The notes: generated from the letters alone by a model not told the origin. Counted from the stretch's first letter, positions 22,594 through 46,564 are shown. The stretch is 64,000 nt of DNA from Candidatus Poribacteria bacterium (GCA_965208675.1 OZ242351.1:2732633-2796632), one strand, 5' to 3'. Made by a program: numbers and translations.

Positions 22594-24078
22594 TCAGTAT
22601 ATTACCCTTTCCTCCCTAAATAATTCGCCCATCATTATATTACCCTTCCCATCATAAATTCGCCACTCCCCATCCACTTTTCGCATTTTAAGAACGAATC
22701 CAGTGTTCCTGGGGCTATCCGACGTTGGCGCTTCTAATCGGAAATGAAATTCATCGCCGACATATTCACTACTCACAATCTCTATCTGACTATAACCCTC
22801 CCGCATCTTCGACTGTCCTTCCGGAGTTTGAATTGCATCCAGTCCCTTCAGTATAGACTGAATCACAGATTCTCTCGTCTTTTCTACTAACGCTTCTGGC
22901 ACCCCTTCTGGAAAATTATCTTCAATTGCATTTAAGGTTTCATTTACAAATTCTTCTGGAAACTCCCCTCCGAGGAAACGTAAACTAGTTTCAATATGAT
23001 CTCTGTAAGCTCCTGTCACAAAGGGGAGAGTTTCCTCTAAATCCACATTCTTAAGTGCTTCCACATAAGCGTTCATCACCTCTTCGGCGGATAAGATTGT
23101 GCCTTCTGATGCAACGGATGAATCGGTTTCGCCTGATTCGGAATCCTGATTAGATGCCCCGTCCGTTGCTAGTTGCGACGCCTGCGTTTCCGATTGTTCG
23201 TCGGCACCTTCTAGATGATCGAAGAAGTCCTCAATTTGCAGCATCTCTTCTGCGGAGATTTGCGGCTTATTTTCGGGTAAAGGTGCGCTGACCGCGCCTT
23301 TACGAGCGGTGTCCGTTTGAGCGACCGAGGTTTCAGACTCAGTTGGCGTCGAAGCTACAATCTCAACCGATGGAGACGAATCTTCTTTCGACGATATGAA
23401 CTGGCGCGTTCCGATGAAGGCGAGTACAATGATGGCTACCGCCCCGGCGGTGATTTTGGGTACTGTTCCAACTTTCATGACCGTTAATCCTCCTGAGTAG
23501 ATTTGTTTGAGTGTGGGCATCGGAGAAACAAACACACCAGTAAGCAGATGACCCAATCGTTTGGCGAGTTTCTGCTTGGCGCGCGAGAGCCGAAACGAAA
23601 TCGCCTTGTATGACAACCCATGCGTCCGAATCAGTTCGTCGTAGCCTGCGCCTTCAAGATAGTACGAGCGAGCGATTTCCCTATCTTTTTGCGGCAACGT
23701 TTCAATCGCGCGGCGAATCAGTTCCCTCTGTTCGCGGCGTATCAACTGTTCGTCGGGTGCGTCCGGGGTTAGGAGTGTGTGTGCGCTCGCTTCATCAATG
23801 GAAACAGTATTGACACGCTGTTTTCGCAACCAATCTCGTGCACTGTTTCGGGCAATCTCTGCCAGCCAGTATTTGAATTTTTCCCGATCCTCATACTGCA
23901 CCAAGCCACGGTAGGCGTTGAGAAAGGTGTCTTGCACAATCTCTTCGGCATCGTTCGGATTGTTTACAAATCCGATTACAACCGCATAAACAAAGGCGTA
24001 ATGCACCCGCATTAACTCCGTGAATGCACCTTCGTCCCCCGCTTGAACGCGGTAAATCAGATCTTTAGTGTTAGCCAC
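22594..24078 (-). CDS. ECF sigma factor fused to a TM segment and a C-terminal extracytoplasmic KMRK..WRIY module (subfamily A)
   Basis: GTG start with GGAGG RBS. Sigma region 2 (AEEIVQDTFLNAYRGL), region 4 HTH (LPQKDREIARSYYLEGAGYDELIRTHGLSYKAISFRLSRAKQKL), TM helix (KITAGAVAIIVLAFIGT), acidic S/P/E linker, PQISAEEMLQIEDFF motif, then EYVGDEFHFRL...KMRKVDGEWRIY. Has a 19-aa extension past the family C-terminus. Confidence 0.8.
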   Translation of the reverse strand: MANTKDLIYRVQAGDEGAFTELMRVHYAFVYAVVIGFVNNPNDAEEIVQDTFLNAYRGLVQYEDREKFKYWLAEIARNSARDWLRKQRVNTVSIDEASAHTLLTPDAPDEQLIRREQRELIRRAIETLPQKDREIARSYYLEGAGYDELIRTHGLSYKAISFRLSRAKQKLAKRLGHLLTGVFVSPMPTLKQIYSGGLTVMKVGTVPKITAGAVAIIVLAFIGTRQFISSKEDSSPSVEIVASTPTESETSVAQTDTARKGAVSAPLPENKPQISAEEMLQIEDFFDHLEGADEQSETQASQLATDGASNQDSESGETDSSVASEGTILSAEEVMNAYVEALKNVDLEETLPFVTGAYRDHIETSLRFLGGEFPEEFVNETLNAIEDNFPEGVPEALVEKTRESVIQSILKGLDAIQTPEGQSKMREGYSQIEIVSSEYVGDEFHFRLEAPTSDSPRNTGFVLKMRKVDGEWRIYDGKGNIMMGELFREERVIY

Positions 24079-24160
24079 TGTTCTTCATTCCTCCTTATAC
24101 CCCTTAATCAAACATAACGACGTTCTGCGATTTTTTCTAGCACTTTTTTTGAAGATGTAA

Positions 24161-24204
24161 CTGTCTGAATCAGGATTTACCGGATTAAAGGATTCCCAGG
24201 ATAT
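24161..24204 (-). promoter_or_regulatory. Conserved promoter core (phased AATCC x3 ... GATTCAGACAGTT) upstream of the 22594-24078 paralog
   Basis: Minus strand TATCCTGGGAATCCTTTAATCCGGTAAATCCTGATTCAGACAG. Followed by the conserved leader AAAAAGTGCTAGAAAAAATCGCAGAACG (24121-24150). Confidence 0.5.
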
Positions 24205-24219
24205 CAGATTAGTCGCGGG

Positions 24220-24257
24220 TTGAAAATAAAAAAGGCGAATGGGTTGTACCATTCGCC
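24220..24257 (-). terminator. Intrinsic terminator (9-bp stem GGCGAATGG/CCATTCGCC + T-tract) after the 24296-25765 gene
   Basis: Minus strand reads GGCGAATGGtacaacCCATTCGCC followed by TTTTTTATTTTC. Confidence 0.6.
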
Positions 24258-24295
24258 ACGTGAAGTCTTTGGGAATAGAGTTGGGAGTTTGTTGA

Positions 24296-25765
24296 TTATT
24301 CCCTTGCATAAATTATCCACACTCCATCAACATTCCGCATCTTAACGAGGCGCATTATGCTTTCTGGTGGCTTTGGAAACCCTGGAGGAAGCTCTCCCAA
24401 TCCCGGTAGTTTTGGCATCGGCACGCTCAATCGGAAGTGAAATTCATCACCGACATATTCGCTCCTCACAATCTCCATCTCCCCATACATTTCCTGTGCC
24501 ATTTGCCGTATCTTCGCCTGCACTTTTGAATTCTGGTTAATCTCCAACATCATTTGCTGCAGACTATCCATCTGTTTTTCTGACATCGCTTCTTTTTCTT
24601 TCGACATCTCGTCGGAAATACGATCTGCTACGTCTTCTGAAAACCCATCACTGAAGATGTGCAAAGTAGTTTCAATGTGATTTCTGGCGGTCCCATCTAC
24701 GTACGGGAGCAATGCCTCAAAGTCAAAAGTCCTATATGCATCGAGATAAGTATCCATCAACTCTTCGGCGGCAAAACTAGCGCTTTCGGCTTCAAAAGAT
24801 GAATCAGTGACATTGCCTTTTTGAAAATCTTGATTGGTTGTCTCGTGCGTTGCTAGTTGTGAGATAGCGGCCTCCGATTGCGCGTCTGACTCATCAAGGT
24901 GAGCGAAAAAGTTTTCGATTTGCTGCATCTCCTCTGCAGAGATTTGCGGTTTGTCTTCAGGCACAGACGCGACGACTGCGCTTTTACGAGCGGCGTCCGT
25001 TTGAGCGACCGAGGTTTCAGGCTCAGTTGGCGTTGAAGCAACAATCTCTTCCGATGGCGACGAATCTTCTTTCGACGATAGGAACTGGCGCGTTCCGATG
25101 AAGGCGAGTACAATGATGGCTACGGCCCCGGCGGTGATTTTGGGTACTGTTCCAACTTTCATGACCGTTAATCCTCCTGAATAGATTTGTTTGAGTGTGG
25201 TTATCGGAGAAACGAATACACCAGAAAGCAGATGACCCAACCGCTTGGCGAGTTTCTGTTTGGCGCGTGAGAGTCGAAACGAAATTGCCTTGTATGACAA
25301 CCCGTGCGTCCGAATCAGTTCGTCGTAGCTTGCGCCTTCAAGATAGTACGAACGCGCGATGTCCCTATCTTTTTGCGGCAAGGTTTCCATCGCGCGGCGA
25401 ATCAGTTCTCTCTGTTCGCGGCGTATCAACTCTTCGTCAGGTGAATCCGCGGTTTGAAGCGTACCTTCGCTCACCTCGTTGATGGATACGGCGTCGATTC
25501 GTTGTTGTTCTCGCAACCAGTTTAAGGCTCGATTTCGCGCAATTTTTGCGAGCCAGCCTTTGAATCTTTTCGTATCCTCAAGTTGTGGCAAACCGCGGTA
25601 AGCGTTAAGGAAGATTTCTTGGACAACTTCCTCGGCGTCGTTGGGATTGTTTACGATTCCGATTACAATCGCATAAACGAAGGCATAATACGCCTGCATT
25701 AACTCAGTGAACGCACCTTCGTCCCATGTTTGGGCGCGAGAAATGAGGGCGTTGTCGTTATCCAC
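24296..25765 (-). CDS. ECF sigma-TM-periplasmic module fusion protein (subfamily A paralog)
   Basis: Same architecture and motifs. GTG start. C-terminus ...VKMRNVDGVWIIYARE. The sigma-domain region is nearly identical in DNA to the neighbouring paralogs. Confidence 0.8.
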   Translation of the reverse strand: MDNDNALISRAQTWDEGAFTELMQAYYAFVYAIVIGIVNNPNDAEEVVQEIFLNAYRGLPQLEDTKRFKGWLAKIARNRALNWLREQQRIDAVSINEVSEGTLQTADSPDEELIRREQRELIRRAMETLPQKDRDIARSYYLEGASYDELIRTHGLSYKAISFRLSRAKQKLAKRLGHLLSGVFVSPITTLKQIYSGGLTVMKVGTVPKITAGAVAIIVLAFIGTRQFLSSKEDSSPSEEIVASTPTEPETSVAQTDAARKSAVVASVPEDKPQISAEEMQQIENFFAHLDESDAQSEAAISQLATHETTNQDFQKGNVTDSSFEAESASFAAEELMDTYLDAYRTFDFEALLPYVDGTARNHIETTLHIFSDGFSEDVADRISDEMSKEKEAMSEKQMDSLQQMMLEINQNSKVQAKIRQMAQEMYGEMEIVRSEYVGDEFHFRLSVPMPKLPGLGELPPGFPKPPESIMRLVKMRNVDGVWIIYARE

Positions 25766-25839: not shown

Positions 25840-25883
25840 CTGTCTGACTCAGGATTTACCGGATTAAAGGATTCTCAGGATAT
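25840..25883 (-). promoter_or_regulatory. Conserved promoter core upstream of the 24296-25765 paralog
   Basis: TATCCTGAGAATCCTTTAATCCGGTAAATCCTGAGTCAGACAG plus the conserved leader. Confidence 0.5.
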
Positions 25884-25899
25884 CAGATTTTTCGCGGGC

Positions 25900-25937
25900 A
25901 GAAAATAAAAAAAGGCGAATGGGTTGAACCATTCGCC
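25900..25937 (-). terminator. Intrinsic terminator (same hairpin family) after the 25987-28728 gene
   Basis: GGCGAATGGttcaacCCATTCGCC + TTTTTTTATTTTC on the minus strand. Confidence 0.6.
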
Positions 25938-25986: not shown

Positions 25987-28728
25987 TTAATACAAATAAT
26001 TAACTTCGTAAATTTGCCATGCACCGTTCTCTTTTCGCATCTTAACAGACGTACCCGGCATCTCTAGGTGCTCGGGCATCTCCGGCAGCTCTATCCCCTG
26101 TAATTCGGGCATCTCCGATATGTCCGGTATCTCTATTTTCGGCATGGCTATTTTCAATTGGAAGTGGAATTCATCGTCGACATATTTACTGGTCACAATC
26201 TCAACCTGACTGAACATTGATCGCACCATCGGATTCTGCATCGTATCGTTTAACATCTGAATCATACCGTCCGCCATTTCTTCTGATAACCCAATGTCAT
26301 TATAATATATATCAACAAGCTCATCCGGAAGCTCACCGTTAAACATGCCTATAAGACCCGTTACCACTGGTCGGGCAGTGCCTGTCACATACGGCAGCAT
26401 CGTCTCAAGTTCAAGCTTTCTATACGCCTCTATATAGGCATTCATCAACTCTTCGGCGGATGCATTCGCGTCGGTTGTGCTGGACTCGGTTTCAGATTCA
26501 GACGGTAGTTGGGAGGTGTCCACTTCCGGTTCTTCGATTTGACCGAGGGAGTCCTTGCCAACGATGACGGTGGCGCGCTTGTTTCGAGGGAATACACTCG
26601 CCGCCAGGTGCTGCATGTCTGCATCGGTAACGCGCTGGATGGCATCACGCAATTCGTTGCCATCCAGTTTCAGTTGATACCGACGACCGGTGCTGAAAGC
26701 TAAACCGTAAAGGTTTTGCGCCCACATGGCATCCGGCACCTCAACTGTGCCCAACATTGCCATTGAGTTAAGCGTTCGCTGTTTGTCCTCCGGTGTAAGT
26801 TTTGTCGCCAACGCCGTGTTTAGGCGTTCGTCGAGTTGAATCAGTGCAATATGGTCGTCTGTGTCAGATTGTAGGTCGGTTTGGAGCACAAGTGTGGTAT
26901 CATCCTCCAGCGGTGTGAAGTACACACGCGGTGTTTTACCCGGCTGAAAGACGAACTGTGCGCTTGCCCACAAACGCGAGACAACTATCAGGAACGGCGC
27001 GTACTCCTTACTCCCGGGTCGGGGTGCAGCATATCCAATCGCTGCGACGCCGGTCGTATCGTCGTTCACAGGTTCTGCAGTAAGCAACCGCAGCCCGCCG
27101 GTCAATGCTATAGACTTGCGCGGTTTAATAGGGGGCGACACGCTGGGCGAAATGTGACCGAAGTTTTGGTGAATCAACTGCCGCGCTTCGGCAACGTCAA
27201 ACCCGCCTGCGATGGCAAGAATGGCGTTGTTCGGTTTGTAGTAATTCTGCCAAAATTGCTGGAGCTCGTCGAGCGTCATAGTCTCGATGTGCTCGGGCGC
27301 GACGCCGACGCGTCCGCCTTCGAGAATCGTGTGCAAGTGAGCTCGAACACTGTTTAAACCGACCAGCGACGGGACGCCACTATACATGTTCCTCAACTCC
27401 GCCATCACGCGAGGCACCTCACGATTCAGATCGGCTTGGGTAATGCGTAGGTCATTCATGCGGGTAGCCGCGTCCTTCAATTCGGACGCGAATTGTTTTG
27501 CTTCGACGACCCCGGCAAAAACGGTGTAGTCAAATCCCGTGTGCGAGTTCCAGCCTGCAACATAGCGTGCCTGAAGCTGTATGGCGCCGCGCGCTGGGGA
27601 GTCGCCGGCTGCAGCGGTATAATACAGGTGTTCAAGCAGGTGTGCTCTGCCGGACTTTCCGATCGGGTCGTGGTCTCCGCCCAAATTGAACAGCACTACA
27701 ACCGCCACTTGGCTTGACGTGGGAACAGGGCGTAGAATGACTGTCAGCCCATTTTCCAGTTTGTACGGCGCCCGTATCTCGGTCTTTGAAATTTTAACCT
27801 CGGCGACGGAGTTGATCGGACTCGGTTGCTCGGGCGAATTACCGACAATCCCCGTGCCGTGTTCACCAAGAACCGTTGGCGGTTTGGCCCCCTCGGCCAC
27901 GAGTTCCACCGGAATCTCTGCAAACATTGTCATCTGGATTTCGCTGGGAAGCGGTGAACTGGCCAGATCGCCGGGCGTAGCAACTGGTCGGAGAAATTGA
28001 TTGAAAAGCATAAAGGTAAGTACTATCCCGACGGTCGCTGAACCGATGAATGGAAGCAACGGCTTCGTTGAAATCGGTTGCACTTTGGTTGACTTAATGG
28101 CTTCGACGATTCGGAACGTAAAGCCTGACTGTAATTTTTTCTCTGCAAATGTGGTGTCTATCATCGAAATCAACTCCTCCTTCAGTTTGGTTCTGGCTCG
28201 CATCAACCGTTGGTTCACGGTGTTGACAGAAGTCCCCAAAAACCGCGCAATCTCCTTGCTACTCAGACCGCCAAGATAGTAGAGCGTCAACGTCTGTCGA
28301 TAGATTTCCGGCAATTGATCAATCGCCTCACGGATGGATTCGGCTGCGGCTTCGCTTCGATAGGCATCAATTGACGGTGTGTCCAAGAGCGCCGTGTCTT
28401 GGTCCTCGATGTAGTCTCCATCTGGACGGCGTAATCGGGATGTGAGAAAATTTGTGCACGAATTAACCGTAATTGAGAACAGCCACGCTAAGAAGTTATC
28501 CCGTCGCTTGAGGGTAGGAAGTTTCTGATAGGCTTTAATAAAGACTTCTTGGGTGATGTCCTCAGCATCGTGGAAGTTTCTAAGCTTTGTGTAAGCTAGG
28601 GCATAGACGCTCGACTTGTATTTATCAACGAGCAAGCCAAACGCCGCCGATTCTCCATTAAGGCATTTTCCGATGATGTATCCATCTTCTGTGTACACGG
28701 TTCTATTCCTCTCACCAAATGGCTTCAT
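25987..28728 (-). CDS. ECF sigma-TM fusion with periplasmic M16 (pitrilysin-like, HxxEH) peptidase domain and C-terminal KMRK..WRIY module (subfamily B)
   Basis: 913 aa. ECF regions 2 and 4 (DAEDITQEVFIKAYQKL; LSSKEIARFLGTSVNTVNQRLMRARTKL), TM (GSATVGIVLTFMLF), GKSGRAHLLEHLYYT inverted zinc motif, C-terminus ...SKYVDDEFHFQLK...VKMRKENGAWQIYEVNYLY. Confidence 0.8.
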   Translation of the reverse strand: MKPFGERNRTVYTEDGYIIGKCLNGESAAFGLLVDKYKSSVYALAYTKLRNFHDAEDITQEVFIKAYQKLPTLKRRDNFLAWLFSITVNSCTNFLTSRLRRPDGDYIEDQDTALLDTPSIDAYRSEAAAESIREAIDQLPEIYRQTLTLYYLGGLSSKEIARFLGTSVNTVNQRLMRARTKLKEELISMIDTTFAEKKLQSGFTFRIVEAIKSTKVQPISTKPLLPFIGSATVGIVLTFMLFNQFLRPVATPGDLASSPLPSEIQMTMFAEIPVELVAEGAKPPTVLGEHGTGIVGNSPEQPSPINSVAEVKISKTEIRAPYKLENGLTVILRPVPTSSQVAVVVLFNLGGDHDPIGKSGRAHLLEHLYYTAAAGDSPARGAIQLQARYVAGWNSHTGFDYTVFAGVVEAKQFASELKDAATRMNDLRITQADLNREVPRVMAELRNMYSGVPSLVGLNSVRAHLHTILEGGRVGVAPEHIETMTLDELQQFWQNYYKPNNAILAIAGGFDVAEARQLIHQNFGHISPSVSPPIKPRKSIALTGGLRLLTAEPVNDDTTGVAAIGYAAPRPGSKEYAPFLIVVSRLWASAQFVFQPGKTPRVYFTPLEDDTTLVLQTDLQSDTDDHIALIQLDERLNTALATKLTPEDKQRTLNSMAMLGTVEVPDAMWAQNLYGLAFSTGRRYQLKLDGNELRDAIQRVTDADMQHLAASVFPRNKRATVIVGKDSLGQIEEPEVDTSQLPSESETESSTTDANASAEELMNAYIEAYRKLELETMLPYVTGTARPVVTGLIGMFNGELPDELVDIYYNDIGLSEEMADGMIQMLNDTMQNPMVRSMFSQVEIVTSKYVDDEFHFQLKIAMPKIEIPDISEMPELQGIELPEMPEHLEMPGTSVKMRKENGAWQIYEVNYLY

Positions 28729-28822: not shown

Positions 28823-28866
28823 CTGTCTGACTCAGGATTTACCGGATTAAAGGATTCTCAGGATAA
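28823..28866 (-). promoter_or_regulatory. Conserved promoter core upstream of the 25987-28728 (M16-containing) paralog
   Basis: TTATCCTGAGAATCCTTTAATCCGGTAAATCCTGAGTCAGACAG. The leader differs from the subfamily-A leader. Confidence 0.5.
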
Positions 28867-28882
28867 CAAATTTTTCGCGGGT

Positions 28883-28919
28883 TGAAAATAAAAAAGGCGA
28901 ATGGGTTGAACCATCCGCC
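28883..28919 (-). terminator. Intrinsic terminator (same hairpin family, 1 mismatch) after the 28966-30354 gene
   Basis: GGCGGATGGttcaacCCATTCGCC + TTTTTTATTTTC on the minus strand. Confidence 0.55.
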
Positions 28920-28965: not shown

Positions 28966-30354
28966 CTATTCATAAATTCGCCATGCCCCGTCCTCCTTTC
29001 GCATCTTAACAACGTTTTCTACGCTCTCCGGCAACTCTGGCATCTCGTCCAGTAGTTCCGCCCGTAGTTCTTCCGGCGTATCCCGCATCAGCGGTTCTAT
29101 CAGTGCTCCAAATTGTGGTAAAGTTGTTCTCACTCGAAAATGGAATTCATCGCCAACATATTCGCTGCTTACAACCTCGGACCCGCCAAGCACCGGGCCG
29201 AACGTCAACTCAATCATCTGCTTGAGCTCTGGATTTTCCTCCATAAAATCTTTCATGTCCGGCAAAACACTTTCCAGCTCTTCTTTAGCAGCCCCTGTCA
29301 ATAACGGGAGCATTGCCTAAAAGTCTAAATTCTTGGATGCCTCGATATAGGCGTTCATTACCTCTTCAGCGGATTGTTCCGTGTCTTCAACAACCGCATC
29401 GGTACTGATTGAGACATGCTGATCGAAGTCTTGCTGATGTGCGGCTTCTGCGTGTTGTGTTTTGTCCGATTGTGCGTCCGCTTCATCGAGTTGAGCGAAG
29501 AAGTTTTCAATTTGCTGCATCTCCTCTGCAGAGATTTGTGGTTTGTCTTCAGGCACAGGCGCGACGACTGCGCTTTTACGAGCGGCGTCCGTTTGAGCGG
29601 CGGAGGTTTCAGCCTCAGTTGGCGTTGAAGCAACAATCTCTACCGTTGGAGTCGAATCTTCTTTCGACGAAATGAACTGGCGTGTCCCGATGAAGGCGAG
29701 TGCGATGATGGCAACTGCCCCGGCGGTGATTTTGGGAACGGTTCCAACTTTCATGACCGTTAATCCTCCTGAGTAGATTTGTTTGAGTGTCAACGCGGGA
29801 AAGGCGAATACACCAGTGAGTAGATGGCTCAACCGCTTGGCGAGTTTCTGCTTGGCACGCGAAAGCCGAAACGAAATCGCCTTGTATGACAACCCATGCG
29901 TCCGAATCAGTTCGTCGTAGCTGGCGCCTTCAAGAAAGTAGGAGTGAGCGATGTCCCTATCTTTTTGCGGCAGCGATTCCATGGCACGTCGAATTAGTTC
30001 TCTCTGCTCGTCGCGAATCAAGCTTTCGTCAGCAGACTCTGACAACTGAACTGCCCGCTCATCCACTTCATCAATAGATACGGTGTCCAACCGCTGTTCG
30101 CGTAACCAGTTTAAGGCTCGATTTCGCGCAATTTTTGCCAGCCAACTCTTGAGTTTGGTCTGCTCCTCATACTGCGCTAAGGCGCAGTAGGCGTTGAGAA
30201 AGGTGTCTTGCACAATCTCTTCGGCGTCGTTGGGATTGTTCACGATTCCGATTACAACCGCATAAACGAAGGCATAATGCGCCCGCATCAATTCAGTGAA
30301 TGCACCTTCGTCTCCCGCTTGGGCGCGAGAAATGAGCGTATCGTCGTTCCTCAC
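28966..30354 (-). pseudogene. Subfamily-A ECF sigma-TM-module paralog interrupted by one in-frame TAG (29314-29316); may be expressed as two products
   Basis: ORFs 29317-30354 (sigma + TM + linker, ends ...KNLDF*) and 28966-29313 (AMLPLLTGAAKEE...VKMRKEDGAWRIYE) are in the same frame. Paralogs read DFEAM at this position, consistent with GAG to TAG. Confidence 0.6.
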
Positions 30355-30430: not shown

Positions 30431-30474
30431 CTGTCTGAATCAGGATTTACCGGATTAAGGGATTCTCAGGATAA
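30431..30474 (-). promoter_or_regulatory. Conserved promoter core upstream of the 28966-30354 paralog
   Basis: TTATCCTGAGAATCCCTTAATCCGGTAAATCCTGATTCAGACAG plus the conserved leader. Confidence 0.5.
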
Positions 30475-30491
30475 CAAAATACACGCGGGTT

Positions 30492-30527
30492 GAAAATAAA
30501 AAAGGCGAATGGGTTGAACCATTCGCC
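30492..30527 (-). terminator. Intrinsic terminator (same hairpin family) after the WD40 gene
   Basis: GGCGAATGGttcaacCCATTCGCC + TTTTTTATTTTC on the minus strand. Confidence 0.6.
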
Positions 30528-35297: not shown

Positions 35298-35314
35298 ACA
35301 GATTTGTCGCGGGT

Positions 35315-35350
35315 TGGAAATAAAAAAGGCGAATGGGTTGAACCATTCGC
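35315..35350 (-). terminator. Intrinsic terminator (same hairpin family) after the 35427-36308 gene
   Basis: GGCGAATGGttcaacCCATTCGCC + TTTTTTATTTCC on the minus strand. Confidence 0.6.
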
Positions 35351-35426
35351 CTGGTGTATCGGGGCAAGGAAACTCCTCATACCAATGTCTACAGTACTCA
35401 TCCGACAGTTAATCGGTACTATGGAA

Positions 35427-36308: not shown

Positions 36309-36478
36309 GATTCACTCCTTTTGAGGAAGGTGTTTTGCTCTCAGTATAACGGTGACGAAAGTAGTGTAGGTACGATAGGTTTGAACTTTCTGATACTGTC
36401 GGATAGAGTTGCGAGCTAGTCTAATGTTTCACTGTCATAAATTCGCCACACGCCATTCTCTTTTCGCATCTTGATAAT

Positions 36479-37136: not shown

Positions 37137-38639
37137 TCAATCGGATACTGATTCGCGCGAGTCCAATATCTCACTCTCATAAACCCGCCACGCGCCATTC
37201 CCTTTCCGCATCTTGAAAAGTGTATTTGGCACAATGACGTCTGAGATTTCTATCCATGTAATCTCCGACTTATCCGGCGCTGGTCCTCCCAATACAAAGT
37301 GAAATTCATCGCCGACATATTCGTTACGCACCACATCTAGCTGACTGAGAGATTTCAGCCACACGTTTCGCATCTTCCGCTCAAATGCCCCACTTCTTAT
37401 CTCTTGTTCAATACTCCGCATCTGCTGTTCAGCCATCTGACGCATCTCAACCGGCAAATCCGACAAATCTTTTAGCCTATCTAGCAGTTTAGCTAGTTCA
37501 GCCGGGTCTAGGATTGGGAAGTTGCCTGTCGCCGCCATGGCCCACTCTCCTTTGATGCGTCCTGTGGATAGAGAGTGTACCGCTTCAAAGTCAAGATTCT
37601 GAAACCCTTTCACATAAGCGTTCATCACTTCTTCTGCGGATAAGTCCGTGTCTTCTGCTACAACAGGTGAATCGGTGTCGCCTAATTCGGAATCCTGATT
37701 AGATGCTTCATCTGTTGCTAGTTGTGGCGAATCTGCCTCCGATTGTGCGTCTGCACCCTCAAGTTGAGCGAAGAAGTCCTCAATCTGCCCCATCTCCTCC
37801 GCTGAAATTTGCGGCTTACCCTCACGCGAGGGTGCGGCGAACGTACCTTTACGCGTGGCGTCCGTTTGTGAGGCTAGGTTTGCAGACTCAGTTGATGTTA
37901 CAATCTCGACCGTAGGGGAGTTATCCTCTTTCGACGATATGAACTGGCGTGTCCCGATGAAAGCGAGTACAATGATGGCTACCGCACCGGCAGTGATTTT
38001 GGCAACTGTTCCAACTTTCATGACCGTTAATCCTCCTGAATAGAAATTTTTGAGTGAGGTTATCGGAGAAACGAACACACCGCTGAGCAGATGCTCCAAC
38101 CGTTTGGCAAGTTTCTGTTTGGCGCGCGAAAGTCGAACCGAAATCGCTTTGTAAGACAGTCCGTGCGTACTCATTAGTTCGTCATAGTCCGCACCGTCAA
38201 GGTAATAAGAGTGAACAATCTCCCGCTCTTTTGGAGAAAGCGTTCCAAGTGCGCGTCGAATCAGCTCCCTCTGTTCACTGAGAATCAACTGTTCGTCTGG
38301 CAATTCTTGCGTCTTGACGGTGGATTTACCGATTTCATCAAACAGGCTTAATTCGTCTATAGGAACAGTATCAATCCGTTGTTTTCTCAGCCAACTTCGT
38401 GCGCGATTTCGAGCAATCTCTGCGAGCCAAGTTTTGAATTTTGACCTCTCCTCATACTGCGCCAAACCACGGTAGACGTTGAGAAAGGTGTCCTGGACAA
38501 TCTCTTCGGCGTCTTGGGGGTTGTTCACCATATCGATGACGATTGCATAAACGAAAGAGTGATATGCCCGTATCAGATCGACAAATGCACCTTCATCCCC
38601 AGCTCGCGCGCGACAAATGAGTGCGCTGTCATTATCCAC
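37137..38639 (-). CDS. ECF sigma-TM-periplasmic module fusion protein (subfamily A paralog)
   Basis: 500 aa. GTG start. Sigma regions 2 and 4, TM (KITAGAVAIIVLAFIGT), PQISAEEMGQIEDFF, C-terminus ...NEYVGDEFHFVL...FKMRKGNGAWRVYESEILD... Confidence 0.8.
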   Translation of the reverse strand: MDNDSALICRARAGDEGAFVDLIRAYHSFVYAIVIDMVNNPQDAEEIVQDTFLNVYRGLAQYEERSKFKTWLAEIARNRARSWLRKQRIDTVPIDELSLFDEIGKSTVKTQELPDEQLILSEQRELIRRALGTLSPKEREIVHSYYLDGADYDELMSTHGLSYKAISVRLSRAKQKLAKRLEHLLSGVFVSPITSLKNFYSGGLTVMKVGTVAKITAGAVAIIVLAFIGTRQFISSKEDNSPTVEIVTSTESANLASQTDATRKGTFAAPSREGKPQISAEEMGQIEDFFAQLEGADAQSEADSPQLATDEASNQDSELGDTDSPVVAEDTDLSAEEVMNAYVKGFQNLDFEAVHSLSTGRIKGEWAMAATGNFPILDPAELAKLLDRLKDLSDLPVEMRQMAEQQMRSIEQEIRSGAFERKMRNVWLKSLSQLDVVRNEYVGDEFHFVLGGPAPDKSEITWIEISDVIVPNTLFKMRKGNGAWRVYESEILDSRESVSD

Positions 38640-38714: not shown

Positions 38715-38749
38715 CTGTCTGAATCAGGATTTACTGGAGTAAGGATTTA
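38715..38749 (-). promoter_or_regulatory. Partial promoter core upstream of the 37137-38639 paralog, split from its upstream half by a ~140-bp insertion
   Basis: TAAATCCTTACTCCAGTAAATCCTGATTCAGACAG. The matching upstream half (...ATCCTGAAAAG and the hairpin remnant) lies at 38896-38960. Confidence 0.4.
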
Positions 38750-39039
38750 CACAGCTGAACACCCAAAGGTTCGTAGTAGGACAATTTAATGCCCGTTTTT
38801 ACTTAAAAATATGTCAGGTCAAGGGTGTGAAGGACATACCGGACGCGCAATAAATTACGCTACTACAAGCTGAACTGCCTATGTCCTAGGAATACAGGCT
38901 TTTCAGGATAAAAAAATTTTCACGGGTTGAAAATGAAACAGGCGAATGGGTAAAAATAATTGCCTAGCGAGGGGCTGGGGTGAGAGACGTTGGTTGTTTA
39001 ACTTTTCATCCGATAGATGCGCCATTCCCCGTCTACTTT

Positions 39040-39807
39040 TCACATGCTAACGACTAGTCCAAAATTGCTGTATGCATCGGCCATCGGCACGGTCAATCGG
39101 AATTGGAATTCATCGCCGACATATTCACTACCCACGATTGTCGTCTGACGGAAAATTCGACGCCATTTCGCTAGGTTTTCCGGAGATCGAATTGAATCCA
39201 TTGCTTTGTAAGCCGACTCAACTGCCTCGTCTATTTCAGTTTCGGACATACCATCGTCGATTGAAGTCAGGTAGTCATTCAGCATTTTTTCCGGCATCAC
39301 CCCACCGAGAACACTCAAAAGGTTTTCAATAGGTTTCCTGGCATTCTCAGTAGTGAATGGGAGAACCGTCTCCAAATCGAAATCCCTAAACGCATCCACG
39401 AACTTATTCATCACTTGTTCAGCGGGATGCTCTAGATTTGCACCCGAGTCTTCGGAGAAGTGTTCAGCGCTATCCTGTATTATCTCTGCGTTTAGTGATG
39501 ATTTCGGTTCATCCAACTCTGGTTGTTCAGCCATGTCTTCGAGTTGGGCGAAAAAGTCCTCAATTTGCTGCAGCTCTGCGGCAGAGATTCGCAGCGTGTC
39601 TTCTGGCAAAGCGCTATCGATTTCGGCATTTCGCGCCGTACGCGTTTGAGCGGCCGAATCTGAAAACTCCTTTGGCGATGATATTACAATCTCAACCTCT
39701 CGATCCGAATCCTCTTCAGCCGAAATGAACCAGAGTGTTATAATCGTGCCGACTAAAATGAGGGCTACTGCACCGGCTACGGTTTTGTGAAGCGTTCCAA
39801 ATTTCAT
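39040..39807 (-). CDS. Sigma-less family member (TM anchor + acidic linker + periplasmic module) with premature TGA in the KMRK motif
   Basis: Starts MKFGTLHKTVAGAVALILVGTIITL, homologous to the ...MKVGTVPKITAGAVAIIVLAFIGT segment of full-length paralogs. Contains LRISAAELQQIEDFFAQLED and ...SEYVGDEFQFRL...VVSM. The TGA at 39040-39042 is followed in frame by KVDGEWRIYRMKS* (CGA to TGA at the Arg of KMRK). Confidence 0.65.
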   Translation of the reverse strand: MKFGTLHKTVAGAVALILVGTIITLWFISAEEDSDREVEIVISSPKEFSDSAAQTRTARNAEIDSALPEDTLRISAAELQQIEDFFAQLEDMAEQPELDEPKSSLNAEIIQDSAEHFSEDSGANLEHPAEQVMNKFVDAFRDFDLETVLPFTTENARKPIENLLSVLGGVMPEKMLNDYLTSIDDGMSETEIDEAVESAYKAMDSIRSPENLAKWRRIFRQTTIVGSEYVGDEFQFRLTVPMADAYSNFGLVVSM

Positions 39808-40660: not shown

Positions 40661-41458
40661 CTACAATCCCTTTAGCAATTCCACAAATCGCTTCCAGGCT
40701 TTTTCAACCGTTGCCTTTTCGGCATTACTCGCATCATCAGCCATCCCGTGTCTGAGGAATCCGTGGCCAACGCCGGAATAAATTACCGGTTCATAGCTCA
40801 CGCCTGCTGCGTCAGCGGCGGCTTTGGTGCGTTCAATTGTGGCATTAACTCGATTATCGTTCTCGCCATAAAATCCGTAGACAGGGCATTTAATATCACG
40901 GATGGCTTCGCCGCTTGGCGGAGGACCATAGAAGACAAACGCCCCGGCAATTGTGTCGTCGTTCGCCGCGAACCGAAATGTCTGTCCGCCGCCCCAGCAG
41001 AACCCACTCACAGCAACCTTGTCCGTTGTTGAGGGCAGGTCTCGAAGGTATTTCGCTGTCGCTTTCAAATCGGCTGTAATTTGACCGGCGTCGAGATTCC
41101 GAATGGCTCTGCGAACATCGTCGCCGGACTCGAAACTCTCTGTGCCGCCGCCGTCCATACCTGAAAGCATGTCGGGGCAGATGGCTACAAAACCTGCTTC
41201 AGCGAGTCTGTCGCCGACGAGCCTTACCCAATCGGTCAGTCCGAAAATCTCGTGGATGACAATCACCGAAGTCGCCTGCTCTTTAATCTCAGGAAAAACA
41301 ATAAAGGCATTCACGCTCCGCCCTTTAGTCGACGGGATTTTCACCCATTCGCCGTGCCGCGGCGAATTTTCAAGCTGCTCCTTCGCACTCGCAGCCGCTG
41401 CATCGGATCCGAGTATCAAAGCGAGGCAAATTGTACATATGAAGTTCGGTACTTTCAT
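40661..41458 (-). CDS. Secreted dienelactone hydrolase family protein
   Basis: Signal peptide. VIVIHEIFGL, GFCWGG nucleophile elbow, GVGHGF. Confidence 0.85.
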   Translation of the reverse strand: MKVPNFICTICLALILGSDAAAASAKEQLENSPRHGEWVKIPSTKGRSVNAFIVFPEIKEQATSVIVIHEIFGLTDWVRLVGDRLAEAGFVAICPDMLSGMDGGGTESFESGDDVRRAIRNLDAGQITADLKATAKYLRDLPSTTDKVAVSGFCWGGGQTFRFAANDDTIAGAFVFYGPPPSGEAIRDIKCPVYGFYGENDNRVNATIERTKAAADAAGVSYEPVIYSGVGHGFLRHGMADDASNAEKATVEKAWKRFVELLKGL

Positions 41459-41643: not shown

Positions 41644-43317
41644 CTAAAAACGGTAAAACCACGTTGTAGCGAATTCGATTCCGCGTCCGGATTCAAGGGG
41701 TTTGAAAAAGTTCATTCTGGAAATAGGGCTGTCCTCCGAGAACTGTAAACCGATACCGACATCTGTCTTTGGATCAAAGCGGTACGGTTTATCAGATATA
41801 CTCCAAACTTGCCCTTCATTAAGGGACAACACGATGAACCACTCATTCAGAAACCCCCAATGGTACAGATTTGAGAGACGGTATAAATATTCTATATTGA
41901 GCAGGGCGCCGTGATCTCCTGAAAATGCGTAGAGTGGATATCCGTTCAAGAGACCAGGCCCCCCAATAAAGAATTGGCGTTGAATCGGCAGTTCATCCGT
42001 AGCAAAGCCCAACATCAGCCGCGTTTGGACAATGTTATTTCCTTTCCCTACTGCATATCGCAGGTGCAACTGAAACCGCGTAAAATCAAAATCGGAATCA
42101 ACGGCAGGACTGCTGTGCTCGACGAGAAGGGTATTGTGCCAACCGAGGTTTTTGTTTTTCCTAGTGTTCAGGTCGTACGTAAATTCGACACTCCGCAGCC
42201 GCCCGGGGTCTATCCGTGGATTTTCTCTCGCTTTTGGAACTGAATCCCAATTGTAAAGATGCCAATCCGTAGATTTACGCAGGCTTTCGTGTGATTCGGC
42301 GCGCATCGTGAATTTGAGCGAATGCGTGAACTCCCGCGGTTCCCATCGAATCGACATCTCAACCCCTTCTCTTAAATAGTAGTTATGTAGCTGAGTCAGC
42401 CCCAGAACGCTACACCAGACGTACCATCCATCCTCGTAGGACGGGAAAAGATCCGGAGAGACGACAGCGGTGGTGCGATGGATTTGAGCCGTGACGCCCA
42501 AATTCCAGATGTTGGGTTGCCCCTGGATAGCTTCTCCACCCACTCTGTAATTGAGATACTTATTTCCAAATCCGTAGCCAATCTCTCCAAATAATTTTGG
42601 CAGATGCGCTCTAGCCGAGCTAGGGATGTCCCACATCCAGAGCGGTCCCATCTGCCACCGTTTTCCCAGTTCGAGGCGAGTAGCCAGCAACCATCCGGTG
42701 ACACGATTAAACCGAATGAGCGGAACTGGACCGAGATAATAGTTTGAAGAGAGCGCTTTTTCGGCGACGGTAATTATCGCAACGAGCTTTGTGCCGTCAT
42801 TCGTATACTCTAAGGTGACCCGACTAAAATAGGGTAAGAAATCCTTTAAGGTGTCAACTGCTTTGTTGAGGTCTTCAGGTCCGTATTCAAGGCCGCCTCG
42901 AATCTCCGCCTCGGAAACTTTCTGATTTCCTCGAATCCGAATTTCATGAATTGGGTGTCCCGCGGCAGTCCGAAACCGCGTCGTTGGTGGAGTTGGCGAA
43001 CTCTGCCTATCCGGCTGCGTTACAACGATAATTGTTGCTACACGCCTCGAACCGTCATGCTTAATTTCCAAGATGGCCCTATTCAAATCGGGCAAAGGCA
43101 AGGTTGTAATCGCTTTTGTGATATCCTCAGGTGCGTTTTCAAGGGCGCTTCGAATTTGTGCTTCGCTGATTTGCTGATTTCCTTGAATCCGGACTTCATG
43201 AATCGGTTCGCCTTCGGCAGTCCGAAACCGCGTGGAATCGTTTTGCGGATGTGCGCTCGCCGCAACACCAATCTCTACCGTCAAAAATGAAATGACGAGG
43301 AGCATTACGCGGTTCAT
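41644..43317 (-). CDS. Omp85-superfamily outer-membrane beta-barrel protein with two tandem POTRA-like repeats
   Basis: Signal peptide. Duplicated ~75-aa unit (TRFRTAEGEPIHEVRIQGNQQISEAQIR... and TRFRTAAGHPIHEIRIRGNQKVSEAEIR...). A long barrel-like region with alternating hydrophobic residues ends in ...WFYRF, with a terminal Phe. Confidence 0.65.
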   Translation of the reverse strand: MNRVMLLVISFLTVEIGVAASAHPQNDSTRFRTAEGEPIHEVRIQGNQQISEAQIRSALENAPEDITKAITTLPLPDLNRAILEIKHDGSRRVATIIVVTQPDRQSSPTPPTTRFRTAAGHPIHEIRIRGNQKVSEAEIRGGLEYGPEDLNKAVDTLKDFLPYFSRVTLEYTNDGTKLVAIITVAEKALSSNYYLGPVPLIRFNRVTGWLLATRLELGKRWQMGPLWMWDIPSSARAHLPKLFGEIGYGFGNKYLNYRVGGEAIQGQPNIWNLGVTAQIHRTTAVVSPDLFPSYEDGWYVWCSVLGLTQLHNYYLREGVEMSIRWEPREFTHSLKFTMRAESHESLRKSTDWHLYNWDSVPKARENPRIDPGRLRSVEFTYDLNTRKNKNLGWHNTLLVEHSSPAVDSDFDFTRFQLHLRYAVGKGNNIVQTRLMLGFATDELPIQRQFFIGGPGLLNGYPLYAFSGDHGALLNIEYLYRLSNLYHWGFLNEWFIVLSLNEGQVWSISDKPYRFDPKTDVGIGLQFSEDSPISRMNFFKPLESGRGIEFATTWFYRF

Positions 43318-43430: not shown

Positions 43431-43474
43431 CAGTCTGAATCAGGATTTACTGGATCAAAGGATTCTCAGAATAG
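43431..43474 (-). promoter_or_regulatory. Intact conserved promoter core upstream of the Omp85/POTRA gene
   Basis: TATTCTGAGAATCCTTTGATCCAGTAAATCCTGATTCAGACTG, about 115 bp upstream of the ATG at 43317. Confidence 0.5.
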
Positions 43475-43491
43475 CAGATTTTTAGCGGTAT

Positions 43492-43527
43492 GAAAAGAAA
43501 AAAGGCGAATGGATTGAACCATTCGCC
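43492..43527 (-). terminator. Intrinsic terminator (same hairpin family) after the orphan module fragment, upstream of the Omp85 gene
   Basis: GGCGAATGGttcaatCCATTCGCC + TTTTTTCTTTTC on the minus strand. Confidence 0.55.
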
Positions 43528-43544
43528 TTGTGTAGTTTTTGGAC

Positions 43545-43710
43545 TAGGAATTCAGGTTAGTGATGGTACACCTCATCTTCAATTTCATGAATGTGCCATG
43601 TTCCACCGACGCTGGCACACCAAACGTTCTCCAGCGGAAGTGCAATTCATCGCCGACATGCACACTGCTCAAAATCCCGACCCAATAAGGCTCTGTAGAT
43701 ATTTCACCTA
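43545..43710 (-). pseudogene. Orphan fragment of the family C-terminal module
   Basis: Minus-strand translation ...ILSSVHVGDELHFRWRTFGVPASVEHGTFMKLKMRCTITNLNS* resembles SSEYVGDEFHFRL...KMRK. There is no upstream ORF. Confidence 0.5.
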
Positions 43711-44026
43711 ACTAGACGACCGAATTAACGAAACCGAGAAACCCAAGATGGCATTCGGCAAGGCACTCAGACCAAGAAAAGATTCGCCGATAGTGCTTGG
43801 TTATGTTTTTAAACTATCCATTAGAGTCTTTCATGACAAAGACAGGCATTATAGCATTTAAGTGACGGCTTTTGGCACGCGGGAAACAACCGGCATTGCA
43901 CCCCAGTAGGTTAAACTATACGAATGAATCATGTTCATTGGTGAAACCCTGAACTAACGACCCAACACAGATGATTCGTGGCGCTGTCCCGCGCTTAGCG
44001 TGTAGCGTAATGGATTGCTCAAACCA

Positions 44027-44410
44027 TCAGCCGTGATACGGTATTGTGAGATTCTGATTCAGTTGTTTTCGATTGTTCTCTGATTTCCAAGAGGGAGAAG
44101 GTGCCGACAAAGAATTAAAATTATTAGTTGCTGAATTCCTCTCGCTAACCTCAGCTTTGTACGATTTTATTAGATTGACTGTTGCCCACACAAACAACGC
44201 GATCGCAACCACCACAAACACAAACATAACCGGTCTTAGTTTTTCACTCCATGGTGTCCGTTTTCCCCAAGCCGCCGCTGCCGCGGAAAAGAGAAGCAAC
44301 CCCGTCATGAATAACGTCTCTGTAGTAACACCCGTAACCGTGATTTGAATTAGTATAATAATCAATCCTATTACGAGGGTAACCAAGGCAATTCGTTTTT
44401 TGCGATTCAT
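44027..44410 (-). CDS. Small hypothetical membrane protein (3 predicted TM helices)
   Basis: Start MNRKKRIALVTLVIGLIIILI... Three hydrophobic stretches. Confidence 0.45.
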   Translation of the reverse strand: MNRKKRIALVTLVIGLIIILIQITVTGVTTETLFMTGLLLFSAAAAAWGKRTPWSEKLRPVMFVFVVVAIALFVWATVNLIKSYKAEVSERNSATNNFNSLSAPSPSWKSENNRKQLNQNLTIPYHG

Positions 44411-45130
44411 AAAAACCCTTCCATAAATGAGCATATAGTCATGGCACAATTATAACGGCAGTTTCCATTGTTATGCCGTTTAGCAATCGGTGTTTTTTCT
44501 TAGCCTCTCGAATTTGCTGTGAGATGGAACATTCCTCCACTCGTTGAAACACCTCATAATGATCATGTTTAACGAACTCGTAACCTTTTTGCAAGTCACG
44601 CTGCAGACGCACGCGCATTCATCATTCGAATACAAGATGTCCTCGTTCTTCAAACATATCGGCGAGGTGAATCCCTATAGAAACTGAAAATTTGCCATCT
44701 TCAGTTGTGTGTATAGCCATGAATTTATCAATGTCGCTACCTTCAACTGACGCAAGAGTGCCTAATCATAGGGCAATCCGGAGATTCTCCTTATGTATCT
44801 CAAGGGCATTTAGGTGAGTTTTACGTGTTTGCCTGAAAGATTCACAAGCATGATCGATTCTCCTTATCAAGTGTACGTGATGCTGCTAGACATTGGTTTC
44901 TTTTACAGAAAGCTGTGTCACTATGGCATTCGGCGAGTCAAACTGAGCAAAGAACCAGTTTGTCACATCTTCGACCGTTTTACACAAGCGTAACAATTCC
45001 GCCTCAGTGTCGTAACAATACACGGATTTTTACGGACGTAATCTGTGGTGTAAGCAACGGAACTGGAGCAAGGTGTTCCTTGATGAGAACTCATGGGGCG
45101 GGTTGCGAGTTATTGTGAAACTTCTCTCTA

Positions 45131-46564
45131 CTATTCATAAATCTGCCATGTACCGTTCTCTTTTCGCATCTTATGAAGAAAGTCGGGCATTTCCGGCATC
45201 TCAGGCATCTGAAATGTCTCGGGAATCTCTGAAATGTCCTGCCCAAACCTTCCTAGCATCTCTGACATTTCCGGCAACTGGCTCCTTAATCGAAAGTGGA
45301 ATTCCTCGCCGACAAACTCACTGCTCACAATCTCTGCTTGACTAAACATCTGTTTAAGGATTGGTTGCATCATTCCTTGTATCATCTGAAGTGTCTCATC
45401 TGCCTCGTCTTCTGGCAAACCACTATCATAAAAAATTTCCTCAATCTCTTGTGGTAACCCTCCTAAAGGCAAACTACTTTCAAACTCTTCTTTGGCTGCA
45501 CCTGTCAGAAATGAGAGCATCGCGCCAGCGTCAAAATTCCGGAACGCCTTCAGATAAGCGTTCATTACATCTTCAGCGGATTGAGTGGTGTCTTCTGGCG
45601 TCGCCCATGAGTCGGTGGCATCGCCCGCATCGGCGTTCTTATCTAAGGCTTCGTCCGTTACTTGTTGCGACGTATCCGTCGCCGAATGCGAGTCTGCCTC
45701 GTCAAGTTGAGCGAAGAAGTCCTCAATCTGCTGCATCTCTTCTGCGGAGATTCGCGGTTTATCTTCACGCGGGGGTGCGGTGACTGCATTACTTCGTATG
45801 GCATCCGTTTGGATGGCCGGTTGCGCGGACTCTGTTGAAGTCACAATCTCAACCGACGAGGACGTATCCTCTTCTGACGAAATGAACTGGCGCGTCCCGA
45901 TGTAGGCTAGTATGACGACGGCTACTACCCCCGCGGTGATTTTGGGTATTGTTCCAACTTTCATGACCGTTAATCCTCCTGAATAGATTTTTTTGAGTGT
46001 CGACGCGGGAATAGCGAACACCCCAGTGAGCAGATGACCCAACCGCTTGGAGAGTTTCTGTTTGGCACGCGAAAGCCGTACCGAAACCGCTTTGTACGAC
46101 AACCCATGCGTCCTCGTCAACTCGTCGTAGCTTGCGCCTTCAATATAGTACGACCGGGCAATCTCCCGCTCACCTGGCGAAAGCGTCTCTATCGCACGGC
46201 GAATGAGTTCGCTCTGTTCACGGTGTATCAACTCGTCGTCCGGTGCATCCGAGGGCGATAGTGTGTGCTCCCCCACCTCATTGATGGACACGGTATCAAT
46301 CCGCTGTTCTCGCTGCCAGTTGAGCGCACGATTTCGCGCAATTTTTGCCAGCCAGTTTTTAAACTTTTTCGCATCCTCGAGGTCTGGCAGGCCGCGATAA
46401 GCGTTGAGAAAAGAATCTTGCACGACCTCTTCGGCGTCTTGGGGATTTTTCACGATTCCGATAACAATCGCATAGACATAACCATAATGCACCCGCAATA
46501 GATCGACGAATGCACCTTCGTCCCCGGATTGTGCGCGAGCAATTGTGTCCTCGTTAATAATCAC
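45131..46564 (-). CDS. ECF sigma-TM-periplasmic module fusion protein (subfamily A paralog); lacks the conserved promoter core upstream
   Basis: 477 aa. GTG start. Sigma regions 2 and 4, TM (KITAGVVAVVILAYIGT), PRISAEEMQQIEDFF, C-terminus ...SEFVGEEFHFRL...LHKMRKENGTWQIYE. Confidence 0.8.
   Translation of the reverse strand: MIINEDTIARAQSGDEGAFVDLLRVHYGYVYAIVIGIVKNPQDAEEVVQDSFLNAYRGLPDLEDAKKFKNWLAKIARNRALNWQREQRIDTVSINEVGEHTLSPSDAPDDELIHREQSELIRRAIETLSPGEREIARSYYIEGASYDELTRTHGLSYKAVSVRLSRAKQKLSKRLGHLLTGVFAIPASTLKKIYSGGLTVMKVGTIPKITAGVVAVVILAYIGTRQFISSEEDTSSSVEIVTSTESAQPAIQTDAIRSNAVTAPPREDKPRISAEEMQQIEDFFAQLDEADSHSATDTSQQVTDEALDKNADAGDATDSWATPEDTTQSAEDVMNAYLKAFRNFDAGAMLSFLTGAAKEEFESSLPLGGLPQEIEEIFYDSGLPEDEADETLQMIQGMMQPILKQMFSQAEIVSSEFVGEEFHFRLRSQLPEMSEMLGRFGQDISEIPETFQMPEMPEMPDFLHKMRKENGTWQIYE

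Follow-up and report, generated by a model that had tools for sequence, protein, structure and literature searches.

A 64-kb stretch of the genome of a Candidatus Poribacteria bacterium (GCA_965208675.1 OZ242351.1:2732633-2796632), referred to here in its entirety as the window, carries on its minus strand, between 22.6 and 46.6 kb, an array of paralogous genes whose intact type-1 members join an extracytoplasmic function (ECF) sigma factor, a single transmembrane (TM) helix, an acidic stalk, and a C-terminal module of predicted NTF2-like fold in one polypeptide. By analogy with a characterized protein of similar layout, it is reasonably likely that the intact genes encode membrane-tethered pro-sigma factors, which would mediate one-component transmembrane signaling and be released by regulated intramembrane proteolysis. 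The sigma-TM-ectodomain architecture has precedents; of note here are a phylum-restricted module, its arrays, the shuffling of ectodomains, and two new details, a conserved internal start and a cassette upstream of the genes.

A profile of the C-terminal module searched against the window returned nine copies (E values from 1e-28 to 1e-60) and one short remnant (E 0.005; 43547 to 43711, minus strand; ..VGDELHFR..MKLKMR..), and matched nothing else there. The paralogy of the array copies is far beyond chance. Five of the nine copies are intact, namely, the type-1 fusions A (22594 to 24078; 494 aa), B (24296 to 25765; 489 aa), G (37137 to 38639; 500 aa), and I (45131 to 46564; 477 aa; 100% identical to database protein P0121), each consisting of sigma domain, TM helix, acidic stalk, and NTF2-like module, and the type-2 fusion C (25987 to 28728; 913 aa), in which the M16 peptidase and M16_C domains stand between the TM helix and the module. 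The other four (D, E, F, and H) are damaged. An open reading frame (ORF) listing over 20 to 49 kb confirmed, in position and on the minus strand, all nine ORFs of an initial annotation made from the sequence alone. Its count of nine or more paralogues holds for the module copies and the remnant, but only five copies are intact, and F and H never carried a sigma domain; some of its limits also shift, as F extends over 36416 to 36919, H extends over 38998 to 39807, and D is one broken gene.

The copies that keep their N terminus (A, B, C, D, G, and I) all score above the cut-offs of the Pfam models Sigma70_r2 (PF04542, 51 to 66 bits against 24) and Sigma70_r4_2 (PF08281, 26 to 67 bits against 25.7) and of the NCBIfam model TIGR02937 sigma70-ECF (96 to 108 bits against 42.9). 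The array proteins have no Pfam match to Sigma70_r3 or r1, and the sigma core ends at about residue 175 to 186, within the core of ~170 to 190 aa, free of regions 1.1 and 3, that defines ECF factors. The proteins are ECF (group 4) sigma-70 factors, and the domain scores bear out the earlier reading of a canonical ECF sigma-70 domain with regions 2 and 4. Public annotation gives just "sigma-70 family RNA polymerase sigma factor," and the NCBIfam subfamily and equivalog models all remain below cut-off (e.g., TIGR02989, 86 to 98 bits against 124.6). The type-1 sigma domains are 67 to 78% identical among paralogues, whereas their NTF2-like modules share only 32 to 52%. The sigma domain of C is only 30 to 35% identical to those of type 1, and its module is 37 to 50% identical to the type-1 modules.

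Type-1 proteins run from sigma2 (residues 1 to 90) through a linker, sigma4 (to ~175), a juxtamembrane segment of ~30 residues (LLTGVFxxPxxTLKxxYSGGLTV), the TM helix (MKVGTVPKITAGAVAIIVLAFIGT), the stalk, a conserved helix (PQISAEEMxQIEDFFAQL; PQISAEEMQQIEDFF), and a low-complexity stretch to the module. A hydropathy scan with a cut-off of 1.4 gave one hydrophobic peak per copy, at residues ~206 to 226, and no second segment at TM level. Residues 176 to 196, which as a second TM helix would invert the topology, were rejected, as the mean hydropathy of 176 to 194 is ~0.6 by hand calculation and the scan has no peak there. The acidic stalk consists to 70 to 74% of S, T, P, E, D, Q, and A; its conserved helix is amphipathic, and the stalk and TM are disordered in the full-length AlphaFold2 (AF2) model. 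Net charge ranges from -1 to +5 ahead of the TM helix and from -25 to -37 past it. The single TM helix, this charge asymmetry, the lipoprotein variant F, and a signal-peptide WD40 neighbor in the array support an N-in/C-out topology with a predicted cytoplasmic sigma domain and a predicted periplasmic NTF2-like module; the lipoprotein signal of F and the signal peptide of the WD40 protein show independently that ectodomains of this kind are exported. The sigma-TM-linker-helix-module architecture proposed in the initial annotation is thus carried by the ORFs, domain scores, hydropathy, and conservation profile, and its cytoplasmic sigma and periplasmic sensor gain support from the single TM helix, the charge asymmetry, and variant F.

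The C-terminal module, with its EYVGDEFHFRL and KMRK motifs, is ~150 aa long; the initial annotation put it at ~110 aa. An AF2 model of the module built on a 98-sequence alignment (predicted local distance difference test [pLDDT], 85.6; predicted template modeling score [pTM], 0.77) shows a number of helices and, after them, an antiparallel sheet of four strands, and the same elements appear at pLDDT ~90 in the full-length model. As modeled, the helices pack on a curved antiparallel sheet to give the alpha+beta cone of NTF2-like folds. Sub-threshold Pfam matches among the 98 homologues are mostly of NTF2 type (DUF3828, MecA_N, Tim44, SnoaL_3, DUF4878, and DUF4440), and together with the model they support the module as an NTF2-like domain, as had been guessed from its resemblance to NTF2, SnoaL, and DUF4878 folds. 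No Pfam or NCBIfam family reaches threshold on the module in the window proteins or the 98 homologues: the best sub-threshold models are DUF4878 (16.5 bits against 24.1) and DUF3828 (best E 2.7e-4, in 12 of 98 members), and SnoaL models give E 0.038 or weaker in 3 of the 98 homologues. The module, which the initial annotation had not recognized either, therefore constitutes an undescribed family. Its conserved core is formed by the beta1-beta2 hairpin (YVGDEFHF) and beta3-beta4 (KMRKxxGxWxIY), with E116, F119, and W145 invariant; a helical insert and the beta2-beta3 loop, which holds 0 to 40 residues of hydrophobic-Pro-Glu repeats, are hypervariable. In copy I this loop (residues 429 to 461) contains MPE, LPE, and IPE repeats. 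A reading of Met-Pro-Glu loops as copper sites was dropped, given that the repeats take M, L, or I and are not Met specific.

To our knowledge, IutY of Pseudomonas putida is the only membrane-tethered sigma factor that has been dissected experimentally. This sigma-TM-periplasmic polypeptide (an ECF243 sigma/anti-sigma hybrid) is inactive until Prc and RseP strip off its periplasmic part and cut its TM segment, and truncation of its periplasmic domain activates it (PMC5411451, PMC8999054). The array proteins are like IutY in their N-terminal ECF sigma domain, predicted to be cytoplasmic, their one TM helix, their C-terminal domain of predicted periplasmic location, and the lack of a separate anti-sigma factor, as well as in their proposed release, in which RseP would act after a periplasmic protease. 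They are unlike it in having an NTF2-like ectodomain on a long acidic stalk, multicopy arrays, an internal start, and a Poribacteria host, whereas IutY has a FecI-type sigma domain, a FecR-type periplasmic domain, and the TonB-dependent receptor IutA. Neither the array proteins nor the neighboring ORFs of the window have a Pfam match to FecR or a TonB receptor. Because they lack a FecR domain and a TonB transducer, the array proteins are not members of the IutY family, although they are proposed to work in an IutY-like way.

In the proposed mechanism, a periplasmic cue would act on the NTF2-like module and, by analogy with IutY, expose the stalk or the module to a periplasmic protease. An RseP-type site-2 protease would then cut the conserved Gly- and Pro-containing TM and juxtamembrane segment, and the freed sigma domain would bind RNA polymerase. 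The long disordered stalk could present protease sites. We favor proteolytic release because there is no anti-sigma domain, the TM and juxtamembrane segments are conserved, the stalk is disordered, an RseP homologue is present in the window, and IutY provides a precedent. Between sigma4 and the TM helix, no anti-sigma domain was found, only ~30 Cys-free residues, and AF2 leaves this segment undocked (pLDDT 28 to 35). The frequency of the most common residue is 0.86 in sigma4, 0.85 in the juxtamembrane segment, and 0.82 in the TM helix; within the module it is mostly 0.35 to 0.68 and reaches 0.76 in the beta1-beta2 hairpin. The TM and juxtamembrane segments are rich in invariant Gly, and they include a near-invariant Pro. 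The candidate releasing protease is an RseP-type site-2 protease (Peptidase_M50 with several PDZ domains; 3772 to 5583, minus strand), which lies ~17 kb from the array and is not linked to it.

This conservation also bears on two other readings of the juxtamembrane region. The sigma domain might work while still tethered, in the manner of ToxR or CadC, with RNA polymerase recruited at the membrane and the NTF2-like module exerting control by oligomerization or conformation without cleavage. We regard this as unlikely, as IutY, the only experimentally studied sigma-TM-ectodomain protein, is inactive until cleaved, and as the TM and juxtamembrane segments are conserved to the degree of sigma4, beyond the need of a passive anchor and in a way that fits recognition by a protease. 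The same ~30 residues could, on the other hand, be a minimal class II-like anti-sigma element that folds onto sigma2 and sigma4 and is relieved by a signal, which would make the proteins strict sigma/anti-sigma fusions. Few parts of the protein are as well conserved as this segment, very short anti-sigma elements occur in the literature (CnrY and ECF291), and the product of a type-2 pseudogene has a faint Pfam match to the class II anti-sigma factor CnrY (E 0.027). However, that match is sub-threshold and absent from the intact proteins, and we treated it as a chance match to a pseudogene product; AF2 docks no juxtamembrane segment on the sigma domain; and an internal Shine-Dalgarno (SD) sequence and ATG account for part of the conservation at the nucleotide level, so that a fold-back element is quite improbable.

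The internal SD and ATG lie where type-1 genes encode SGGLTV-MK, at about codon 201, with the codons TCA GGA GGA TTA ACG GTC ATG (AGGAGG-N10-ATG). They occur, on the minus strand, at 23476 to 23496 in A (codon 201), 25160 to 25180 in B, 29752 to 29772 in D, 38019 to 38039 in G, and 45962 to 45982 in I, and their spacing is about equal to that of the genes' own SD sequences. At the first GGA, 47 of 48 sequences agree in the synonymous third base, whereas the median over 28 four-fold sites in conserved codons is 0.60, and the sole site that is more conserved belongs to a Gly codon three codons past the internal ATG. The internal Met is also precisely where stand-alone homologues of 280 aa start, some of which are sigma-deleted derivatives kept in several genomes. 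The conserved SD and ATG and the homologues that start there make internal initiation likely, and a sigma-less TM-stalk-NTF2 isoform is probably produced from the same mRNA. It is conceivable, though doubtful, that each type-1 gene is a self-contained two-product sensor, in which a tethered sigma factor would be paired with a sigma-less decoy or partner that sets the threshold and the array would act as a Poribacteria-specific integrator of many inputs to one promoter, possibly tuned to sponge cues.

Upstream of every sigma gene lies a cassette that begins with an intrinsic-terminator hairpin (GGCGAATGGTTCAACCCATTCGCC and a T-run), followed by ~100 nt with AATCC elements (three AATCC repeats and the palindrome AATCCnGATT), and ends with an A-rich box (AAAAAAGTGCTAnAAAAAATC, -66 to -45) and the SD AAGGGAGGAA at -19. 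The cassette upstream of A (24161 to 24257) shows the hairpin GGCGAATGG..CCATTCGCC with its T-run, the AATCC repeats, and the palindrome; further cassettes lie at 25840 to 25937, 28823 to 28919, 30431 to 30527, 35255 to 35351, and 43431 to 43527, and one without a hairpin lies at 38715 to 38731, all on the minus strand. The array thus holds seven cassettes, the rest of the window has none of comparable quality, and shuffled sequences never gave as many matches as were observed. The cassette is conserved among paralogues and keeps a fixed distance to the start codon across Poribacteria species, and it looks like a shared regulatory region. Among the Poribacteria loci examined, 15 of 19 cassette copies are followed within 200 nt by a sigma-fusion gene; downstream of the others are a decayed sigma gene, an Omp85-like gene, and a gene for a secreted dienelactone hydrolase, and one (L034) has no clear downstream ORF.

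In the window, the full cassette at 43431 to 43527 stands ahead of a gene for an outer membrane protein of the Omp85/POTRA family (41644 to 43317, minus strand), an arrangement that recurs in a relative (L046). In another species (L017), the cassette precedes the gene for a secreted dienelactone hydrolase orthologous to that at 40661 to 41458 of the window. Their position behind a cassette makes the Omp85 and dienelactone hydrolase genes candidate members of a common regulon. The near-equal sigma domains and cassettes of the type-1 copies, set against their diverged NTF2-like modules, suggest many sensors with a shared output. The type-1 array would then feed many sensors into one or few shared outputs, which could comprise the array's own paralogues and a small number of envelope genes (the Omp85-like gene and, in a relative, the secreted dienelactone hydrolase). 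A scan for the sigma-70 consensus stayed at background (19 sites against 16.7 expected), and ECF-like promoters read by eye (GAATCC-N16-CTGATT; GAAC...CGT) were dropped as inconsistent across paralogues and species. At gathering thresholds, Rfam matched nothing in the window, and the conserved upstream element therefore fits no known RNA family. The A-rich box AAAAAGTGCTAAAAAAA proved too unspecific a pattern in a scan of metagenomes, with no sigma fusion or module among the matches listed (120 loci).

The phylogenetic spread of the module, a point raised in the initial annotation, was surveyed in two ways. A profile search of 1.84 billion representative proteins recovered only 94 clusters with the module, and a scan of 185,579 species (one genome each) gave 116 confirmed matches; all 79 loci kept from the latter are Candidatus Poribacteria metagenome-assembled genomes, many of them complete chromosomes of 4.7 to 7 Mb. 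A close homologue of copy I is likewise annotated as Candidatus Poribacteria. Outside Candidatus Poribacteria the module was not found, and within this group it is usually sigma-fused, as in 83 of the 121 module-bearing ORFs from 80 loci. Approximately 24 of the 121 are members of an unrelated but conserved Poribacteria family whose proteins carry a short form of the module at their end, and the remainder are sigma-less forms or fragments. Members of this unrelated family, found in L031, L042, L049, and ~20 other loci (match at ~3001 to 3300), have the N-terminal sequence GSGKSLRAGVLS...NENFINxWV.... Full-length sigma-TM-stalk-module architecture is retained in >120 protein clusters at 53 to 85% identity. 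Literature searches turned up no account of this module or of ECF fusions from Poribacteria.

Within the array, decay has taken several forms. D (28966 to 30354) is a type-1 fusion with one TAG at 29314 to 29316 (GAG to TAG) and is otherwise intact; its sigma domain was recovered from the 29317 to 30354 portion. F (36416 to 36919) combines a lipoprotein signal peptide (MRFLIVSLVCLPLFVNGC..., ending in ..LFVNGC) with the module and no sigma domain, and its in-frame TAG at 36479 to 36481 falls ahead of the module's final two strands. H (38998 to 39807) encodes TM, stalk, and module from MKFGT on, with no sigma domain, and is interrupted by a TGA at 39040 to 39042 (CGA to TGA) within the KMRK motif. 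All three lie on the minus strand, as does E (32682 to ~35160), a decayed type-2 sigma-M16-NTF2 copy that is 73% identical to C and has a truncated/frameshifted or deleted sigma domain. D, F, and H each contain exactly one in-frame stop (TAG, TAG, and TGA), followed by intact sequence free of frameshifts, a pattern that points to recent nonsense mutations, although sequencing error or read-through may also account for it. Orthologues of F and H without the interruption are present in the nearest relative (L004). The mixed state of the copies indicates ongoing birth and death within the array.

With four of nine copies damaged here, the array could be taken largely as evolutionary debris, i.e., duplicated sigma genes that captured adjoining coding sequence and whose extensions have no sensory function. 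The capture of unrelated C-terminal extensions after duplication has been documented in Planctomycetes (PMC7671368), and the module is also found in other protein contexts. Set against this are the full-length architecture in those >120 clusters, down to 53% identity, and on many complete Poribacteria chromosomes, the invariant E116, F119, and W145, and the confident fold of the module in AF2, which leave such an origin very improbable.

Several points nevertheless weigh against released pro-sigma factors as the account of the intact genes. Proteolytic release is inferred purely by analogy, in an organism that is uncultured, and neither a site-1 protease nor a ligand was identified. In most bacteria rseP serves housekeeping, and at its distance from the array its presence in the window is permissive and not specific. 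For the probable sigma-less isoform, the IutY model offers no parallel. The AATCC repeats and the palindrome are more like a transcription factor operator than like ECF -35 and -10 elements, so that autoregulation is unproven, and the damaged copies could mean relaxed selection in this genome.

The type-2 lineage places the NTF2-like module in a wider set of sigma-TM fusions. The M16 domains of C score above cut-off (PF00675, 25.1 against 22.3; PF05193, 43.5 against 23), and both C and E (32682 to 34895) keep the HLLEH zinc motif and a downstream Glu motif; HLLEH aligns to HALEH of the zinc protease 4nnz, and REVPRVMAE aligns to its E..EE motif. By domains and motifs, C and E are members of Peptidase M16. 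Many 875-aa Poribacteria orthologues (P0327) have HLLGH in place of HLLEH, and the M16 domain may therefore be a noncatalytic sensor in much of the family. A homologue search with C showed sigma-TM-M16 proteins to be common in Poribacteria (usually 875 aa long, with another tail at the C terminus) and in Planctomycetes (Paludisphaera and Isosphaeraceae; ~990 aa), and the type-2 sigma-TM part is also joined to Kelch or WD40 propellers. In the M16 lineage, the NTF2-like tail is confined to the closest relatives of C (98 to 99% coverage).

The signal-peptide WD40 protein encoded inside the array (30558 to 32441, minus strand) shares 68% identity with the ectodomain of P0360, a type-2 sigma-TM-WD40 fusion on another Poribacteria contig, and the match begins at the same junction (QDASQWGLPEG). 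The WD40 protein therefore belongs to this modular family as a relative without a sigma domain. The M16, Kelch, and WD40 homologues of C show that a sigma-TM part with an exchangeable ectodomain is a widespread design in these lineages, and the occurrence of the NTF2-like module on two unrelated ECF lineages, one of which also bears M16, WD40, and Kelch domains, suggests that periplasmic sensor domains move freely onto sigma-TM chassis. Among Planctomycetes ECF factors, duplication with divergent or new C-terminal extensions has been described, and ectodomain swapping on the type-2 sigma-TM part fits this pattern (PMC7671368). C and E belong with the Planctomycetes and Poribacteria sigma-TM fusions (e.g., Paludisphaera soli P0406), with which they share the sigma lineage and the TM helix, whereas the NTF2-like module was found only in Poribacteria. 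The literature yielded nothing that joins ECF01-Gob with WD40.

Other known systems share parts of this architecture. In the actinobacterial groups ECF48, ECF52, and ECF53 (e.g., SCO4117), a C-terminal extension includes TM helices, an extracytoplasmic Pro-rich region, and a sensor domain, and proteolytic activation has been predicted (PMC8999054). They resemble the array proteins in joining an ECF sigma domain to a long C-terminal extension with a TM helix and an extracytoplasmic sensor, but they have a zinc finger (ZAS-like) element before the TM helix and a carbohydrate-binding ectodomain. The 35 residues preceding the TM helix of the array proteins contain no Cys and at most one His, and without a zinc finger these proteins are not ECF48/52/53 members. 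ECF41, ECF56, ECF294, ECF295, and ECF205 also have an NTF2 superfamily domain C-terminal to the sigma factor. In those groups, however, the SnoaL domain lies in the cytoplasm immediately after sigma4 and makes contact with the sigma core, whereas in the array proteins a TM helix and a stalk of ~100 residues intervene and the NTF2-like domain, predicted to lie outside, could not touch the sigma domain. The array proteins are therefore not ECF41-like, and the ECF41 motif strings NPDKL, DGGGK, and WLPEP are absent from them. A structural parallel for C and E is the ectodomain of RsgI9, an anti-sigma-I factor of Clostridium thermocellum (PDB 7sjy), which combines an S1C peptidase-like and an NTF2 domain; RsgI9 differs in being a separate anti-sigma protein that binds sigma-I via a cytoplasmic domain, with no sigma fusion, in having an S1C in place of an M16 peptidase, and in its Gram-positive source. 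The initial annotation had recognized neither the module nor the dense paralogue array; the concept, however, is known from IutY and ECF48/52/53, and the novelty was overstated.

Besides the fusion genes, the array contains a gene for a 293-aa protein (35427 to 36308, minus strand) that has a signal-like sequence at its N terminus, contains a two-fold internal repeat (..DPxAARxEL..HxLxxEWxxLxFRLSRE..), and gives no Pfam match. The array is flanked by plus-strand genes (15904 to 16725, 17210 to 18040, 18550 to 20514, and 20511 to 22289) that encode two Laminin_G_3 paralogues, a long TPR protein, and an FG-GAP/ASPIC protein, and their order is repeated in a related genome (L001).

A membrane-tethered sigma factor is the simplest conceivable path from the cell exterior to a promoter, and the family is a compact new example of it, with no anti-sigma domain and an ectodomain that folds well in prediction. 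It offers natural variants in sigma-fused, sigma-less, lipoprotein, and nonsense-truncated forms, and the internal start, if real, would add a new level of regulation to ECF systems. For synthetic biology, orthogonal sigma-TM-sensor chassis of this kind would be attractive parts. For the organisms themselves, the family represents a lineage-specific expansion in Poribacteria, which live as uncultured symbionts of sponges and whose host sensing is hardly understood.

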